Shown here: one piece after another, positions 8,662 to 15,642 of the stretch
Numbering within the stretch: the stretch's first letter is position 1
Layout: every line of letters begins with the position of its first letter
NCBI GenBank assembly: GCA_964583985.1
Contig: CAZOYD010000044.1
Span: forward strand, 1-30,156
Reading direction: 5' to 3'
DNA from: an uncultured archaeon
GTDB lineage: Archaea > Asgardarchaeota > Lokiarchaeia > Sigyniarchaeales > SOKP01
DNA length: 30,156 bases
The notes under the pieces: generated by a model
Databases searched by the model: none
Seen by the model: only the letters and a program-made list of their open reading frames with translations
Told to the model about the DNA's origin: nothing
Made by a program: the position numbers and the translations under genes

Positions 8662-9183
8662 TTAAAACTCATTCCTGCACTTTATGCAAACGCGTTTTTT
8701 AGCATAAACTTTTGGAAAGAAACTTATAAGTTGGGATTTATCCTCAACCTCTCTGATTGCAAATCCTTGTGCTCCACAATTTGGACATTGTCTTTTCCTT
8801 ATTCCCGAATCAAAATTTACAATATCAACAGCTGGAACGGAAGGACTTACATTAACATTTGTCCCTATTGGATTTAATTCAACAGGAATATCAATATTTG
8901 GTGGGGGGTGAAGTTTTGGAGGTGGAATAGTATTTTGTATGGTTACTTTATGTGGTATTTCCTGGGGCGGTGCTGATGGTACAGAAATTGGGATTTCACT
9001 TACAACCCCTTGAGATTTTAATCGATTATTCTCTTCAATTAAACGATTTATAAGACTATCTTTTTCAGCAACGAGATTTTGATAATATTGCAATTGAGAT
9101 TCTAATTCTTGTATATGATCAGTAAAGAAATTAATGCGATCCTCCCAATCGGATAAGATCTCTTCCATATTACTCTGTACCAA
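8662..9183 (-). CDS. Hypothetical protein: N-terminal coiled coil, Pro-rich linker, C-terminal C4 zinc ribbon
   Basis: Heptad-like helix at about aa 5-57, 'PPPKLHPPP' linker, CPNC-x29-CIKC. TTG start. Confidence 0.8.
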   Translation of the reverse strand: MVQSNMEEILSDWEDRINFFTDHIQELESQLQYYQNLVAEKDSLINRLIEENNRLKSQGVVSEIPISVPSAPPQEIPHKVTIQNTIPPPKLHPPPNIDIPVELNPIGTNVNVSPSVPAVDIVNFDSGIRKRQCPNCGAQGFAIREVEDKSQLISFFPKVYAKKRVCIKCRNEF

Positions 9184-9374
9184 ATTTTTTTCACTATCCT
9201 ATTTACAAACATGTAATCGTTGTTATTAGTTTATTCCGACATAAATATAAGTGTTATTAAAAAACGTTTAATTACGGTCAATTGTGAATTACAATTACAA
9301 ATTAGCAGTATAATTCCTTTTTAAATCATTAAAAATTAGAAAAACTAATTTATTTTTATGAACATGTATGGCAA

Positions 9375-10301
9375 ATGGAACAAAATCAAGATATAATTAA
9401 GAATCTTTATAAAGAAATTGAGAATTTGGGATATAAAGCACGATTTATTGATGCTAAACACATTTCTGATTTGAGAAACGATATCCATCAACAACAAAAG
9501 CACATGTATCCGGAATTTTACGAAGAGTACAAATCATATTTTGAATTTAATCCTGAAGTAAATTTTGACTCTATAAAATCTATTATCGTATTTGCGGTTC
9601 CTGTACCACAGTATGAAGCCACGCTTAAATACAAGTCAAATCTCTTCTCTCTAATAATTCCACCAACATATCTTTACGGTCAGAAAATTATTGATGGGTT
9701 GGAAGAAATATTAAAGAATTTCTTAACGCCTAAAGGATATAGTGTAAATTATGCCCGTCTCCCTGTAAAAACATTAGCTGTGAGAAGTGGGCTAGCAAAA
9801 TACGGTAGAAATAATATAACATATGTTTCAGATATGGGAAGTTTCCATCGTTTGGTTCCATTCTATTCAGATGTTCCAATAAAAGAAGATAATTGGTTTG
9901 CGCGGGAAATGATGGAAATCTGTGCAACCTGTAATGCATGTATAAATGCCTGTCCTTCTGGAGCTATTACAAATAAGCGATTTCTCTTAAAAGTTGATAG
10001 GTGTCTTACATACCATAACGAACATCCTGCAAACATTTCTTTTCCAGAATGGATCAACCCTAGTTGGCATAATTGCCTTGTTGGTTGTTTGCATTGCCAA
10101 AAAATCTGTCCTATCAATAAAAAGGTTAAAGATTGGACTGAAAAAGGACCTTCATTTAATGAAAAGGAGACCAGCCTCCTCCTCCAAGAAAGAAAAAAAG
10201 ATAACCTTCCCAAGGAATTAATTGAAAAGCTGATTAAGTATGATTTAATGAATTATTTAGAAATTTTTCCAAGGAATTTACGCGTATTTTTAAAAGGATG
10301 A
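9375..10301 (+). CDS. Epoxyqueuosine reductase (QueG)/reductive-dehalogenase-like double 4Fe-4S protein
   Basis: 'KTLAVRSGLAKYGRNN', 'CATCNACINACP', 'RCLTY', 'GCLHCQKICP'. Confidence 0.8.
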   Translation: MEQNQDIIKNLYKEIENLGYKARFIDAKHISDLRNDIHQQQKHMYPEFYEEYKSYFEFNPEVNFDSIKSIIVFAVPVPQYEATLKYKSNLFSLIIPPTYLYGQKIIDGLEEILKNFLTPKGYSVNYARLPVKTLAVRSGLAKYGRNNITYVSDMGSFHRLVPFYSDVPIKEDNWFAREMMEICATCNACINACPSGAITNKRFLLKVDRCLTYHNEHPANISFPEWINPSWHNCLVGCLHCQKICPINKKVKDWTEKGPSFNEKETSLLLQERKKDNLPKELIEKLIKYDLMNYLEIFPRNLRVFLKG

Positions 10302-10411
10302 GAATCCATTACTCAAGTTATAAAAATTTTGTAGAAAAGTAATTTCGAGTTTTTTTCATTTTTGGAATTAAAATCTTAAAGAATTAATATCCCTTCAACA
10401 TTATAATAAAT

Positions 10412-11572
10412 ATGAATAGTTTTGAGCGCATTTGGACAGCAATTAACTTAGAGAAACCCGATAGAGTTCCCACTCACACAATAAATATCGATGGAAATGT
10501 GGCGGATCAAATATTGGGTAAACCTGAAAGAACTGCATATGACATTTTTGATGAATTACAAGAAAAACATCCTGATGATTGGGTTGATAAAATAAATGAA
10601 ATACTAGATGATATTGAAATTTCAGTCTTCGCAAAATGCCTAAGAGCTGGCCATGCATTAGGATTTGATGGTGTAGGAATTCAGTACATCCCATTTATTT
10701 TTGAAAGTTTAGAAGAAATGACGGATATTTTTGGTAAAAGGCATAAAGTTAGAAATATCGATGGAAATCCTTATCCTGATTATTATGGGGGATATATAAA
10801 GAATAGAGAAGATTGGGAAGCATATCCTAAACCAGATCTAAAAGAAGAATATCGAAAAGCAAAGAAATTCTATAAGGGCGTACTAAGAAAATGCCGTGAT
10901 ATTAAGGATGATATTTGCATTTTTGCTCAAAATGCTCTGACTTCGATCTTCCCGCCCGTGTGGCAGGGAATGGGCATGTCCTATTTTGCTCGTGCTTTAA
11001 AAAATGATCCTAAATTAATTGAAGAGAGATTTAGATTTACAACTGATTATGTTTTGACCGTTTTTAAAGCATATTCAGATTGTGGCGCGAAAATATTTCT
11101 TGAAGGTGGTGATATTGCACATAAAGGCGGTCCAATGATTAATCCTAAATATTTCGATAAATATCTCTTACCTCGTTATCAAGAAGTATCGGATGCAATT
11201 CATGGTTGGGGTGGAAAGTATATCTTGCATACGGATGGAGATGTTACGGATCTTTTGGATTTTATTGTAAATTCCAGATTTGACGGTCTTCAATGCTTGG
11301 AACTACCTTGGGTAGATCCTCATCTAATAAAAAAGAGAGTAGGAGACAAATTATGCCTTTCTGGAAATATTGACACGAGACATGTGCTAGTAAAAGGAAC
11401 TAAAGATGAGGTGGAGAAGGCCGTGAAAGATGCAATTTCCGCATTAGGAAAGGATGGTGGGTTCATGTTAAGTCCTTCCAATTTCCATCCAAGCATGTCA
11501 GTTGAGAGATTGAGATGGATGATTGAAGCCGGAAAAAAATATGGGACTTATCCCTTGAAAATTGATTTATAA
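10412..11572 (+). CDS. Uroporphyrinogen decarboxylase / MtaA-CmuA methyltransferase family protein
   Basis: 'PDRVP', 'GDIA...GPMINP', 'ILHTDG', 'LSGNID', 'GGFMLSPSN'. Confidence 0.88.
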   Translation: MNSFERIWTAINLEKPDRVPTHTINIDGNVADQILGKPERTAYDIFDELQEKHPDDWVDKINEILDDIEISVFAKCLRAGHALGFDGVGIQYIPFIFESLEEMTDIFGKRHKVRNIDGNPYPDYYGGYIKNREDWEAYPKPDLKEEYRKAKKFYKGVLRKCRDIKDDICIFAQNALTSIFPPVWQGMGMSYFARALKNDPKLIEERFRFTTDYVLTVFKAYSDCGAKIFLEGGDIAHKGGPMINPKYFDKYLLPRYQEVSDAIHGWGGKYILHTDGDVTDLLDFIVNSRFDGLQCLELPWVDPHLIKKRVGDKLCLSGNIDTRHVLVKGTKDEVEKAVKDAISALGKDGGFMLSPSNFHPSMSVERLRWMIEAGKKYGTYPLKIDL

Positions 11573-11588
11573 ATTAAGATAAAGGAGA

Positions 11589-12071
11589 TTGATTTTGAAA
11601 GACTTAAGCCAAGAAGTTAAAAAGATCATTAAATCTAACATGTGGATGGTAATTTCAACAGTTGATGAAAAAAACCAACCCCATTCATCGGTGGTCGTGT
11701 ATCAAAGTGATGGAGACATTCTTATTTTTCAAACGGGAATTGATACCATAAAAGCAAAGTCCATCAAAAGCAACAACAACGTATCAATAACAATCCCATT
11801 TAGGAAGAATTTCTTGCATAAACTCATTCCAGCACCTCCTGCAGAACTTCATTTCACGGCAAAAGCAGAATTAATTCCTTTTGAAAATGAAGAAGCAAGG
11901 AAAATATTTGCTAAATTTTTAAAACATTCAGAGAATGTTGAAAATCCTCAAGAAAGCACGTGGGTGAAGATTACACCCTCTAATACGATTTCTACGTATG
12001 GAGTTGGAATTAAGCTTCTTGATATGAGAAAACCGAACAAGGCAAGGAATCTTGTTAGATTAAACGAGTGA
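11589..12071 (+). CDS. Pyridoxamine 5'-phosphate oxidase-like flavin-binding protein
   Basis: 'VISTVDEKNQPHSSVV', 'KAKSIKSNNNVSI'. AGGAG RBS precedes TTG (11589 or 11595). Confidence 0.8.
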   Translation: MILKDLSQEVKKIIKSNMWMVISTVDEKNQPHSSVVVYQSDGDILIFQTGIDTIKAKSIKSNNNVSITIPFRKNFLHKLIPAPPAELHFTAKAELIPFENEEARKIFAKFLKHSENVENPQESTWVKITPSNTISTYGVGIKLLDMRKPNKARNLVRLNE

Positions 12072-12167
12072 TTTCAAAATAATTTACATTATAAACACAT
12101 CTTTAAATTAATGCTCTATCTTTATTATTTATAGATTGAATATATAAACCACATCCGGAGATTTAAA

Positions 12168-13364
12168 ATGCCTAAAGATTTAAAGGATCTTATTGAAAAG
12201 GTTGAAGAAGAACAAGAATCTAGGGCTTATTTGGAGAAAACCATCGAAAGCTTGAAAGCAGAAGTTGCTTCTTTAAAAAATAAATTGGAAGATCAAAAAC
12301 CATCATTTAAAATCGAACCTGTTAGACACGTCGAGGAACATGACGAATCTGAGGAAATTTCTATTCTAAAAAATTTGATTAATTCATTACGAAAAGAACT
12401 AGAACAAAAAGGTATCGAAAATAAAGAACTACAAAAACAATTAGAAGAGCTTAAAACTGAGTTTGTAAAAGTAAGGAATGAATTATTTGATTCAGGAAAG
12501 GATGAGATTATTATTAAAACCCAAAATTCATTGAATACTCTCCTTCAAGATTATGGAAGGTTAGAAAATGATAATAAAAACCTCAATAAAAAAATCTCGA
12601 GTTTGCAACAAGAAATTGAGCAGTATACTCTATTATCATCTGGTCTTCAGTCTGAAAGTTCCAACAAGGAGCAGTTAGAAAAGCAAGTTGGTAATTTTAA
12701 AGCTAAAATTTATGAATTAGAATCTAATAATCAATCACTCATTAGAGAACTTAAAAATCTACAATCTCAAGGAAATTCAAATAATCTCGAACAAATGATT
12801 GAGAAAGTAAAATCTAATAATCTTGAATTAGAGAAAGAAAACAAGATTTTAACCCAAAAATTAGAAGATCTAAAAAGAGAAAAGTTTAAAATGCAAAAAT
12901 ATGAATCTGAAATCTCCGATTTAAGAGCCCAAATCGAGCAACTGAAAAATGCCAATAAAAATTTAAAGGATAAGGATTCTATTTTACTTGCTAAAACAAT
13001 TAATGCTTTTAGTACTCAAGATCGAAAAGAATTAAGCATCCCTACACATGTGGAATCGCAAACTTCCATAAAATCAGGACCAATTCCTATTATGGAAGAA
13101 AATAATTTCATAGAAATGGGACTCCCTCATGAACACCAAGAGGTAGATACGCTGCAGTCAATGAATATCACAGAACGTGAGGAAATAGAAAGAATTCCTG
13201 AGATGACTGAAGATGGAGCTGTCACTCGAAAATGGCAATGTCCTAATTGCGGAAATACCAATAAATCTCAAATTCGAGAAAAAGATGATAAAACTCGAAT
13301 GATCTTTCCAGGTTTTTATACGAAGATATATATCTGCGGACAATGCGGAAAGGAATGGAGATAA
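12168..13364 (+). CDS. Long coiled-coil protein with C-terminal C4 zinc ribbon
   Basis: About 270 aa of E/K/L/Q heptads, an acidic linker, then CPNC-x28-CGQC-GKEWR. GGAG RBS upstream. Confidence 0.85.
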   Translation: MPKDLKDLIEKVEEEQESRAYLEKTIESLKAEVASLKNKLEDQKPSFKIEPVRHVEEHDESEEISILKNLINSLRKELEQKGIENKELQKQLEELKTEFVKVRNELFDSGKDEIIIKTQNSLNTLLQDYGRLENDNKNLNKKISSLQQEIEQYTLLSSGLQSESSNKEQLEKQVGNFKAKIYELESNNQSLIRELKNLQSQGNSNNLEQMIEKVKSNNLELEKENKILTQKLEDLKREKFKMQKYESEISDLRAQIEQLKNANKNLKDKDSILLAKTINAFSTQDRKELSIPTHVESQTSIKSGPIPIMEENNFIEMGLPHEHQEVDTLQSMNITEREEIERIPEMTEDGAVTRKWQCPNCGNTNKSQIREKDDKTRMIFPGFYTKIYICGQCGKEWR

Positions 13365-13402: not shown

Positions 13403-13876
13403 ATGCCATATTCGATTCCCTTTAATCGTACACCAATTAATCCCATTTCTAAATTTGCTGAAGTCAAACCCAGCACAATTCATGGTTCAGGTCTGTTTGC
13501 TAAGATATTTATTCCCAAAGGTACAATTTGGTGGCATGCGAGACCTCAAGATGTATTAATAATAAGTAAGGAACAATTCCAGACAATAAGCTCGTCTTAC
13601 AAAAATACGTTATTGGATAGTTATTTCAGAGCACTCCTTATTTATTCGTATTATGAAAGAGATTTGGGTGCTTTGATTTTCTGCTTGGATGATTCTAAAT
13701 TCGTTAACCATTCCGCAGAAGCTAATTCAGGAGCTACTGAAGATGAAAACGGATTTTGTTCGATCGCTCTGAAAGATATACAACCTGGAGAAGAAATTAC
13801 AGAAGATTACTCTAAATATACATTTTGTGAATGGTTACAAGAATATAGAGATTATTTTGATCCGTGTTGTTGGTGA
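13403..13876 (+). CDS. SET-domain protein (putative lysine methyltransferase)
   Basis: SET motif I 'IHGSGLFA', 'KFVNHS', and 'ALKDIQPGEEITEDY'. Confidence 0.9.
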   Translation: MPYSIPFNRTPINPISKFAEVKPSTIHGSGLFAKIFIPKGTIWWHARPQDVLIISKEQFQTISSSYKNTLLDSYFRALLIYSYYERDLGALIFCLDDSKFVNHSAEANSGATEDENGFCSIALKDIQPGEEITEDYSKYTFCEWLQEYRDYFDPCCW

Positions 13877-13890
13877 TAAGTTTAAGCAAT

Positions 13891-14652
13891 TTAATTTATG
13901 AATACCCCATCTAAAATTTGGTATATCTTGTCCGTCCTATCCGCTATATTAAAATCGTGAGTGACTATAATAATGGATTGCTCCTCCAATTCATTAATTG
14001 ATTTGAGATAATTAATGACTTTATCTCCAGTAGTCGTGTCAAGATCTCTCGTCGGTTCATCAGTCAGGAAAATACTCGGTCGATTGACGAGTGCTCTTGC
14101 TATAGCGACGCGTTGTTGCTGTCCTCCCGATAATTGGCTAGGTCTATGGTTCAAGTGTTTTTCTAATCCAACTTTATGTATTAGATCTAGAACTCTTTCT
14201 TTTCTCTCATTTTTTTTCATACCTACAGAAATTAATGGAAGTTCAATATTTTCACAACAAGTTAATACAGGAATTTGATTAAAAAAAATTGAAAAAATGC
14301 TAAATTTTGAATTACCAATAGCTCTTAGAAGTCCTAGCTCATAAATTTGGTCTTCCTTAGATATTTCCATGAGATTTTTAATGATTAGAACGCAAATAAT
14401 AAGAGATATTGCTGAGAAAACCATTAATATTCCTCTGAATAAATAAATCCAGTGATTTATATTTCCATATAAGGAAGGATCAATATGTTGCTGCAATGAA
14501 TAATCTAACGGATCAGTTGCTATATTTACTGAAAAAAAAATTCCAACCCCGAGGATAATTGAAATTTTCGTAAAAATATTGCGAATGGGTCTTTTTAGAA
14601 TAGTTTTATATGCAATTTTGATTTCAATAATCCGATTTGAAACCAGTCTCAT
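13891..14652 (-). pseudogene. Deletion chimera: FtsX/MacB-type permease N-terminal part fused in frame to the C-terminal half of a LolD-type ABC ATPase
   Basis: Permease motif 'ELGLLRAIG' runs directly into 'IPVLTCCENIELP...LSGGQQQRVAIARAL...LTDEPTRDLD...VTHD'. No Walker A. Confidence 0.75.
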
Positions 14653-14823: not shown

Positions 14824-15642
14824 ATGATTCTCATGTCATTAAAAGAAGAAATTAGTAGCATGGTTTTTTCTGGTAGTTCCACAATTTCAGATTTAATAAC
14901 GGAAAAAGCAATTATTACATCGGGAAGTTGCACTCTTCAAGGTAACCTTGAATGTAATGGTTTTCAGTCGTCTGGTGCGATGCATGGTAGAGGAACAATT
15001 ATAACTCATAAGAATTTTGCAAGTTCGGGAGCTTTAAATTTAGAAGGGGCAATTGAATGTGATAAAAACGCTAAATTTAGTGGCTCAGCAAATATTTATG
15101 GGAATATTATAATTAAAAGGACTTTCATTAATTCAGGCGTTTTGAATCTTTCTGGACCCTTAAAAGTTGGTTTAGAAGCACTTTCCAGTGGGCATACAAA
15201 ATGTGATAATCTCTTGGTTAACGGGCTATTGAGCGTATCAGGAAGTGTAAATGCACTTGAAATAAAAGCAGGAGATGGTATTAAATCATCTGGATCGCTT
15301 TCGGTGATGAAAGATATAGATTCTTCAAAATTTATCGACATCACTGGGAAACTAAAGGTAGGAGAGAATATTTATGGAGATACCGTTCTAATCGATTATG
15401 GTCGAAAAGAACGGATCTTGAAGTTTATTAAATTTAATTACATAGTAAATGGGAATATAAATGCCAAGAATTTAGTAAGTATTGACAGAACGTTAGTAAA
15501 AGGCGATATTAGAGGTCGTAGCATAATCATTGAGAAAAATTCACAAGTGAAAGGGAATATTTATTATGTTGATGATTATATCATTCACGACAAAGCAAAA
15601 ATAACAAAACCTCCCATTCAAATTAAATTTGAGGATTTATAA
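14824..15642 (+). CDS. Polymer-forming cytoskeletal (bactofilin-like, YhbE/YhbF type) beta-helix protein
   Basis: Repeats of about 17-18 aa, each with an SG turn (SGSCTLQGNLEC, SSGALNLEGAIEC, SGSANIYGNIII), ending 'VKGDIRGRSIIIEKNSQVKGNIYY'. Confidence 0.75.
   Translation: MILMSLKEEISSMVFSGSSTISDLITEKAIITSGSCTLQGNLECNGFQSSGAMHGRGTIITHKNFASSGALNLEGAIECDKNAKFSGSANIYGNIIIKRTFINSGVLNLSGPLKVGLEALSSGHTKCDNLLVNGLLSVSGSVNALEIKAGDGIKSSGSLSVMKDIDSSKFIDITGKLKVGENIYGDTVLIDYGRKERILKFIKFNYIVNGNINAKNLVSIDRTLVKGDIRGRSIIIEKNSQVKGNIYYVDDYIIHDKAKITKPPIQIKFEDL

Follow-up and report, generated by a model that had tools for sequence, protein, structure and literature searches.

Two coiled-coil proteins, P0001 and P0002, encoded in a 30,156-nt stretch of DNA from an uncultured lokiarchaeon (contig CAZOYD010000044.1, positions 1–30,156, hereafter the window), end in the same predicted zinc ribbon, which is rather likely to be a C-terminal docking tag for the Lokiactin cytoskeleton, attaching its carriers directly or indirectly and mounted here on rods of two lengths. 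The window is contig C44 (31.7% G+C) of a 3.8-Mb assembly in 138 contigs (genome G000). Both ribbons belong to a published domain family, and carriers of this domain are enriched in a Lokiactin co-immunoprecipitation (Co-IP) from a cultured member of the same order, Candidatus Lokiarchaeum ossiferum.

The initial annotation had taken the ribbon for an undescribed module. A profile built from 14 ribbons matches residues 284–333 of chain G of PDB entry 7WHG, the Lokiarchaeota two-domain gelsolin Loki2DGel, with the entire model covered (E 1.3e-14). The ribbon of P0002 is 52% identical to that of the L. ossiferum two-domain gelsolin (2DGel; E 1.5e-13), and the ribbon of P0001 matches the same sequence with E 1.1e-8. 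The window ribbons are therefore members of the Loki Zn-domain family, a domain that has been described since 2022 (Akil et al., 2022, Commun Biol 5:890, PMC9433394) but not characterized as to function. Akil et al. found the Zn domain strictly at the C-terminus of gelsolins (Loki2DGel, KKK44901.1, the construct of 7WHG chain G, and MKD1-2DGel) and of "unrelated multi-domain proteins," as well as in small free proteins (e.g., TFG08877.1), noted a Tyr-tipped loop, and could not consistently detect the domain beyond Loki. The corresponding part of the 7WHG crystal gave no electron density, and the Zn domain is therefore without a solved structure. In the searchable literature after 2022 we found no paper naming the domain or giving it a function. 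The window genes are new members only, since the 2022 paper already covers the domain as well as its modular spread. Matches of PDB sequences to PRDM9, Aart, and ZNF568 were rejected as C2H2-linker artefacts summed over repeats.

Both window genes have the build proposed by the initial annotation, namely a coiled coil, a disordered linker and a ribbon, the arms being approximately 50 and 270 residues long (Table 1); the open reading frames (ORFs) and their translations agree with the coordinates and terminal sequences reported there, and the architecture is borne out by an AlphaFold2 (AF2) model of P0002, heptad tests, and composition. The tails of the two proteins are 46% identical over 46 residues (BLASTP E 1e-9), whereas BLASTP detects no significant similarity outside them, so that a common ribbon on dissimilar coils is confirmed. 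The distances between cysteine pairs, given as 28–29 residues in the initial annotation, are 29 in P0001 (CxxC-29-CxxC) and 28 in P0002, and both proteins terminate 2–3 residues past the last Cys. The start of P0001 is uncertain, with TTG at 9183 giving 173 aa and ATG at 9168 giving 168 aa. In its residues 1–58 the heptad a/d excess is 0.78, compared with 0.45 ± 0.11 for shuffled sequences, and was reached by 0/300 shuffles; its linker contains 21% Pro (P+S+V+I+N together 67%) and shows no heptad signal, and its ribbon is strongly basic (isoelectric point, pI, 9.8). The full-length AF2 model of P0002, built with nine or ten orthologues, consists of helices 3–42, 62–106, 109–199, and 204–288 with predicted local distance difference test (pLDDT) values mostly between 80 and 96. 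Heptad periodicity in residues 60–288 is significant (reached by 1/300 shuffles), the linkers being without such a signal, and the linker of P0002 is acidic (D+E 22% vs. K+R 7%).

Table 1. Positions of P0001 and P0002 and their segments in the window, and the other ribbon carriers of genome G000. HMM, hidden Markov model.
Feature	Position	Strand	Support
P0001 gene: short coiled coil, Pro-rich linker, Zn-domain ribbon	8662..9183	-	ORF, translation, orthologues
P0001 residues 1-58, coiled-coil helix	9010..9183	-	Pro/Gly-free; heptad periodicity
P0001 residues 59-128, Pro-rich linker, probably disordered	8800..9009	-	composition, heptad test
P0001 residues 129-173, Zn-domain ribbon, coiled-coil ("...EF") subtype	8665..8799	-	HMM 8665-8808, E 5.5e-23
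P0002 gene (398 aa): long coiled-coil rod, acidic linker, Zn-domain ribbon	12168..13364	+	ORF, orthologues
P0002 residues 3-288, rod of four long helices	12174..13031	+	AF2 model, heptad test
P0002 residues 289-352, acidic disordered linker	13032..13223	+	pLDDT <50 at 286-352
P0002 residues 353-398, Zn-domain ribbon, gelsolin-type ("...EWR") subtype	13224..13361	+	HMM 13218-13361, E 1.5e-22
Coiled-coil carriers, 304 aa and 306 aa			
Gelsolin carrier, 338 aa: two Gelsolin repeats, linker, ribbon	contig C6		PF00626, 99.9 bits
Short carrier, 106 aa: short helix, ribbon			
Carrier, 162 aa: N-terminal part matching no Pfam family, ribbon	L006:2272-2757		
Free ribbons, 68 aa and 57 aa			

Among curated Pfam and NCBIfam models, none spans the whole of P0001 or P0002 above its cut-off. 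The ribbons give scattered weak matches to many generic zinc-ribbon families, the Gelsolin repeat (PF00626) matches neither protein, and all Pfam coiled-coil matches are sub-threshold and compositional. An intermediate-filament or crescentin-type identity (PF00038, PF19220) was rejected, with P0002 reaching 19.4 bits where PF00038 requires 40, and PF24161, which recurs among the domains of relatives, proved to be CCDC39; it matches coiled coils in general and does not model the ribbon.

Starting from the two window tails, an HMM search iterated over the six-frame translation of G000 returned seven further copies in the first round (E 1e-6 to 1e-17) and, after iteration, nine copies in all (E 1e-19 to 1e-25), each at the extreme C-terminus of its protein. 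Four of the nine are carried by coiled coils, one by a two-domain gelsolin, and four are short or free. Thus, the additional coiled-coil-linked copies that the initial annotation had proposed to look for do exist in this genome, two of them besides P0001 and P0002. The family consensus is RR.CP.CG, 3–5 residues, [IL].E..DK[ST]..[IVL], 4–8 residues, Y[AG]KK..C..CG..[FW], and the distance between the cysteine pairs varies between 28 and 34 residues. Four Cys and one Tyr (Tyr37 of the alignment) are invariant in the 14 aligned ribbons, which include both window copies; Pro12, Lys28, and Lys39 are conserved in at least 90%, and the pI ranges from 7.9 to 9.8. Carriers can lie close together, as on contig C6 of G000 (4.4 kb) and in L. 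ossiferum (4.5 kb). About 120 nt downstream of the stop codon of the gelsolin-ribbon gene on contig C6 there is also a 16-residue open frame, VYGKKYKCGQCGIGGT (G000:C6:78083-78130; L001:10568-10615, minus strand), which repeats the closing stretch of the ribbon of that gelsolin (HMM E 8.9e-4). It has the look of a remnant left when the 3' end encoding the ribbon was locally duplicated or recombined.

A profile scan found the ribbon in 248/399 genomes of the phylum. All genomes of the window's order are positive (152/152, with 4–16 matches each), sister orders of the class have 1–3 matches per genome, and many other Asgard families have exactly one copy, these single copies being free ORFs of 49–68 aa with the full signature. 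The ribbon is absent from some Asgard families, e.g., f16 (0/22) and f19 (0/19). When 1.84 billion representative proteins were searched exhaustively with the profile, only 561 matched at E <=1e-3, and the source names of the relatives are all of Promethearchaeota (Loki-, Thor-, and Hodarchaeota). In 247/265 retrieved relatives the ribbon ends at most 2 residues from the C-terminus, and it is joined to coiled coils, whether short or long, to gelsolin, or to nothing, which upholds the earlier view of a portable module on coiled-coil arms and extends it to gelsolins and to free-standing copies. The gelsolin-ribbon fusion was observed in every genome of the order examined for it. Ten relatives, all metagenomic, have two ribbons (P0123, P0003, P0124–P0129, P0131, and P0132); six of them, of 484–586 aa, have an internal ribbon approximately 120–170 residues ahead of the C-terminal one and are exceptions to the C-terminal-only rule. 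Pfam scans of the multi-ribbon and other long carriers revealed no further informative partner, and an aminotransferase-ribbon "fusion" on a 1.2-kb contig was discarded as a probable artefact. The tree of ribbons, built on approximately 45 columns, is weakly resolved, with a single supported clade (93/95) that comprises the P0002 ribbon, the gelsolin ribbons, and their neighbouring free copies. The P0001 ribbon falls outside this gelsolin-type clade, among the coiled-coil type ending in "...EF." The 57-aa free proteins of G000 and L. ossiferum fall together with the single copies from other classes; they are probably the ancestral orthologue.

The association with actin is seen in Ca. L. ossiferum B-35 (G138; a single contig of 6,035,313 bp), whose genome encodes eight ribbon carriers. 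A study of motility in this organism (10.1101/2025.11.30.690169; published in 2026, PMC13716822) contains a table of Lokiactin Co-IP together with a key from tags to accessions; its authors do not comment on the ribbon carriers, and the published paper does not mention zinc. We mapped the carriers to Co-IP rows by accession offset and monoisotopic mass; for the known 2DGel, the mass calculated in this way agrees with the table. Seven carriers were detected (Table 2), and six of these are among the top 54 of approximately 569 proteins (hypergeometric P 3.7e-6), ranks being taken among the non-contaminant rows listed and the total being estimated from adjusted p-values. The probability is 3.3e-5 when the gelsolin is left out and at most 7e-4 under less favourable assumptions. 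Both free ribbons are enriched although they have no other domain, an indication that the association is due to the ribbon itself.

Table 2. Lokiactin and ribbon carriers of L. ossiferum in the Lokiactin Co-IP.
Protein	Log2 enrichment	Significance	Remark
Lokiactin	4.44		
2DGel-Zn (GNAMCCOK_04136)	3.97	adj p 0.015	
(EEADRKAK)n-Zn (GNAMCCOK_05159)	3.85	p 0.021, adj p 0.066	assigned from mass and genome location only
Free ribbon, 57 aa (GNAMCCOK_03900)	2.53	adj p 0.004	
Coiled-coil 404 aa-Zn (GNAMCCOK_04980)	2.10	adj p 0.001	
Coiled-coil 330 aa-Zn (GNAMCCOK_00612)	1.91	adj p 0.012	
Free ribbon, 62 aa (GNAMCCOK_04132)	1.74	adj p 0.029	
Coiled-coil 534 aa-Zn (GNAMCCOK_03553)	0.57	not significant	
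Carrier, 341 aa (L017, UYP46080.1, 39.85 kDa)			not among the rows listed; N-terminal part without Pfam match

Some of these proteins have features of their own. The rod of (EEADRKAK)n-Zn (L014, at 6.034 Mb of the L. ossiferum genome) consists of approximately 26 perfect tandem copies of EEADRKAK ahead of the ribbon. GNAMCCOK_04980 (L016), a homologue of the G000 gene at L004:6025-6942, is among the roughly 30 most abundant proteins of L. ossiferum, with a whole-proteome mean of 22.6 compared with 21.7 for Lokiactin. Several uncharacterized proteins stand above Lokiactin in the Co-IP, namely GNAMCCOK_00333 (37.5 kDa, log2 9.2), _02751 (67 kDa, 7.7), _04250 (20.6 kDa, 5.1), and _04085 (56.4 kDa, 4.5); they are candidates either for ribbon partners or for antibody cross-reaction.

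According to the reading we prefer, the basic four-Cys ribbon of approximately 45 residues, placed on a flexible linker, would bring its carriers to Lokiactin by binding either the filament or an actin-associated factor. The tag would probably derive from a free mini-protein of approximately 50 aa, which many Asgard lineages possess as one copy, and in the window's order this mini-protein would have multiplied and become fused to the 3' ends of gelsolin and coiled-coil rod genes. Coiled coils usually dimerize. If the rods do so here, P0001 with its short arm and P0002 with its arm of approximately 285 residues would each present two ribbons and might act as spacers, cross-linkers, or tethers of differing reach, and free ribbons could be their competitors for docking. 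In a stronger form of the proposal, which is possible but doubtful, the Zn domain would be a new Asgard-specific actin-docking module that arose from a conserved microprotein of approximately 50 aa and uses its basic hairpin with the Tyr tip to bind either Lokiactin filaments or a core factor associated with actin, with P0001 and P0002 as bivalent cross-linkers or tethers.

Several observations weigh against a docking function on actin. The Zn domain of Loki2DGel did not co-sediment with rabbit F-actin (PMC9433394), so direct filament binding is unproven and perhaps absent. One coiled-coil carrier is unenriched in the Co-IP and another carrier is not among the rows listed; the experiment combined formaldehyde cross-linking with an antibody, and enrichment may therefore be indirect; and the ranks come from the rows listed, within a total that is only an estimate. 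In L. ossiferum, the similarity to P0001 and P0002 is confined to the ribbon and orthologues of the two are lacking, so the Co-IP data cover neither of them and would apply to both by way of the shared domain. Cytoskeletal context is absent from the gene neighbourhoods of the window and of the free copies. Furthermore, Lokiactin occurs in families that are devoid of the ribbon (f16, 18/22; f25, 5/5), and the ribbon is therefore not a general requirement of the actin system. With Lokiactin present in 353/399 genomes of the phylum, the co-occurrence of the two is compatible with a link to actin and does not discriminate, actin being nearly universal. The window genome has two close Lokiactin paralogues that are 83% identical (G000:C1:25546-26688, L022, and G000:C116:686-1825, L023), in addition to three more actin-family genes; the main Lokiactin is 96–99% identical across the window's family and 88–92% identical to that of the L. 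ossiferum family.

The same data could arise if the ribbon docked on a partner other than actin, such as a membrane, the envelope, or a hub protein, and its carriers co-purified because the whole cross-linked cortex did. The result with rabbit F-actin and the formaldehyde treatment of the Co-IP cells would fit this explanation, as would the uncharacterized proteins that exceed actin in the Co-IP (GNAMCCOK_00333 and _02751), and a basic ribbon with an exposed aromatic tip would suit binding to lipid or to acidic proteins. We nevertheless regard it as unlikely, because the actin precipitate, compared with IgG, is enriched in the two free ribbons (6.5 and 7.4 kDa), every examined genome of the order has the tag on a bona fide actin regulator, and no transmembrane or envelope domains were found among its fusion partners. 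Alternatively, ribbons might bind each other, so that the coiled-coil carriers and the free ribbons reach actin only through the gelsolin domains. All carriers share the module and co-purify with 2DGel-Zn, some are encoded near each other or near the gelsolin gene at the distances given above, and two-ribbon proteins exist. Such self-association is considerably less probable, given that many Asgard families have a single free mini-protein and no other carrier that it could bind. To our knowledge, moreover, zinc ribbons are not typical homo-oligomerization modules.

A resemblance to the C-terminal ribbon of TFIIS and TFS had been suggested initially and would imply binding to nucleic acid or RNA polymerase. 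In the AF2 model of the P0002 ribbon (segment 348–398, mean pLDDT 78), a zinc knuckle is followed by a long beta-hairpin whose strands are formed by segment residues 22–33 and 36–43 (P0002 369–380 and 383–390). The turn is Pro-Gly followed by Phe-Tyr, the invariant Tyr (P0002 Tyr384) adjoins it, as also in the full-length model, and the acidic residues of the E..D(D/K) motif are located where strand 1 begins, close to the metal site. The reservation made in advance, that the acidic pair may not be at the hairpin tip, is thereby supported. The Cys-pair spacer of TFIIS is approximately 24 residues (1TFI). The longer spacer of the ribbon family and the position of its acidic residues at the base of the hairpin mean that the analogy with the catalytic hairpin of TFIIS fails.

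Structural comparison shows a resemblance to zinc ribbons in general. A Foldseek search of the PDB gave nothing at E <=1e-3 (best E 0.21); its weak top rows are TFIIS domain III and Rpa12/Rpb9 (template modelling scores approximately 0.52–0.58), ZifS, and Rpp21. Over 48,161 chains, VIA-align returned best Z values of 3.7 for NrdR, 3.5 for TFIIS, and 3.3 for TFS4, so TFIIS stands no higher than NrdR or other ribbons in the fold searches. By these scores the ribbon has the classical zinc-ribbon fold, and no specific relative stands out. On PF01096 (cut-off 21 bits), the excised P0002 tail does reach 21.7–22.1 bits, at most over fragmentary stretches, whereas whole P0002 scores 15.9, P0001 gives no match, and only 4/14 family members match (E <0.01). 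Members of the TFIIS/TFS/Rpb9 family (PF01096) share with the ribbon the three-stranded four-Cys fold, and some members of the window family end in "CG..W"; they differ in the shorter spacer, in an acidic hairpin tip where the ribbon has its conserved Tyr, in the TFIIS/Rpb9 N-terminal domains that the ribbon carriers lack, and in their partners, those of the ribbon being gelsolin and coiled coils on carriers that co-purify with actin. A polymerase- or nucleic acid-binding ribbon of the TFIIS type, or another of its kind, is thus very improbable.

P0001 and P0002 are real genes, as indicated by relatives conserved along the N-terminal part of the former and along the rod of the latter. Relatives of P0001 (143–173 aa) are up to 57% identical over the N-terminal part and were found with an N-terminal query in 17/60 genomes of the family, whereas relatives of P0002 (404–441 aa) are 41–55% identical along the entire rod and are present in 9/10 sampled genomes of the genus. 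In three genomes of the genus the two orthologues are arranged tail to tail at a distance of 1.4–2 kb; in three others they are on separate contigs. An operon or a fixed pair was therefore rejected, linkage being partial and orientation different; the arrangement is a loose synteny. The genes between and around both ORFs encode a nitroreductase, an FAD oxidoreductase, a 4Fe-4S protein, and URO-D-like, PNPOx-like, and SET-domain proteins, these neighbours being unrelated metabolic genes, and the flanks of free copies in five other Asgard genomes showed no conserved neighbourhood. The 157-aa SET-domain protein (13403-13876, plus strand) begins 38 nt past the P0002 stop codon, and co-transcription is possible. 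One kilobase beyond it lies a gene for a 272-aa bactofilin-domain protein (14824-15642, plus strand). A 253-aa ORF on the minus strand (13891-14652) combines a hydrophobic N-terminal part with an ABC ATPase domain of which just the C-terminal half is present (positions 68–136 of the 137 in PF00005) and is probably a truncated or chimeric ABC gene.

If the stronger form of the proposal holds, with bivalent rods and a new docking module, P0001 and P0002 would be a simple archaeal counterpart of the eukaryotic actin cross-linking rods. A tag shared by gelsolin, several abundant rods, and free mini-proteins marks a small and definable set of candidate cytoskeleton-associated proteins per genome, nine in the present one. 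The binding partner of the Zn domain is now testable, given a cultured organism, an existing antibody, and a domain of 45 residues.

Compared with the Zn domain of Loki2DGel, the window ribbons have the same (CxxC)2 ribbon, the same C-terminal position after a flexible linker, the same extended hairpin with a Tyr tip, and the same lineage. They differ in their carriers, which are coiled-coil rods of orthologue groups that Akil et al. did not describe, rather than gelsolins, and the range reported for the domain is widened here by the single free copies detected in many other Asgard families. A further parallel is the headpiece of villin, supervillin, and dematin. The villin-type headpiece, a bundle of three helices that contains no metal, attaches directly to F-actin. 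The Zn domain, in contrast, was negative with rabbit F-actin in the assay mentioned above. The likeness is one of functional analogy and not of homology: in both cases a small C-terminal module follows gelsolin repeats on a flexible linker, occurs on other scaffolds as well, and gives, or in the case of the ribbon would give, its carrier a second attachment to the actin cytoskeleton.

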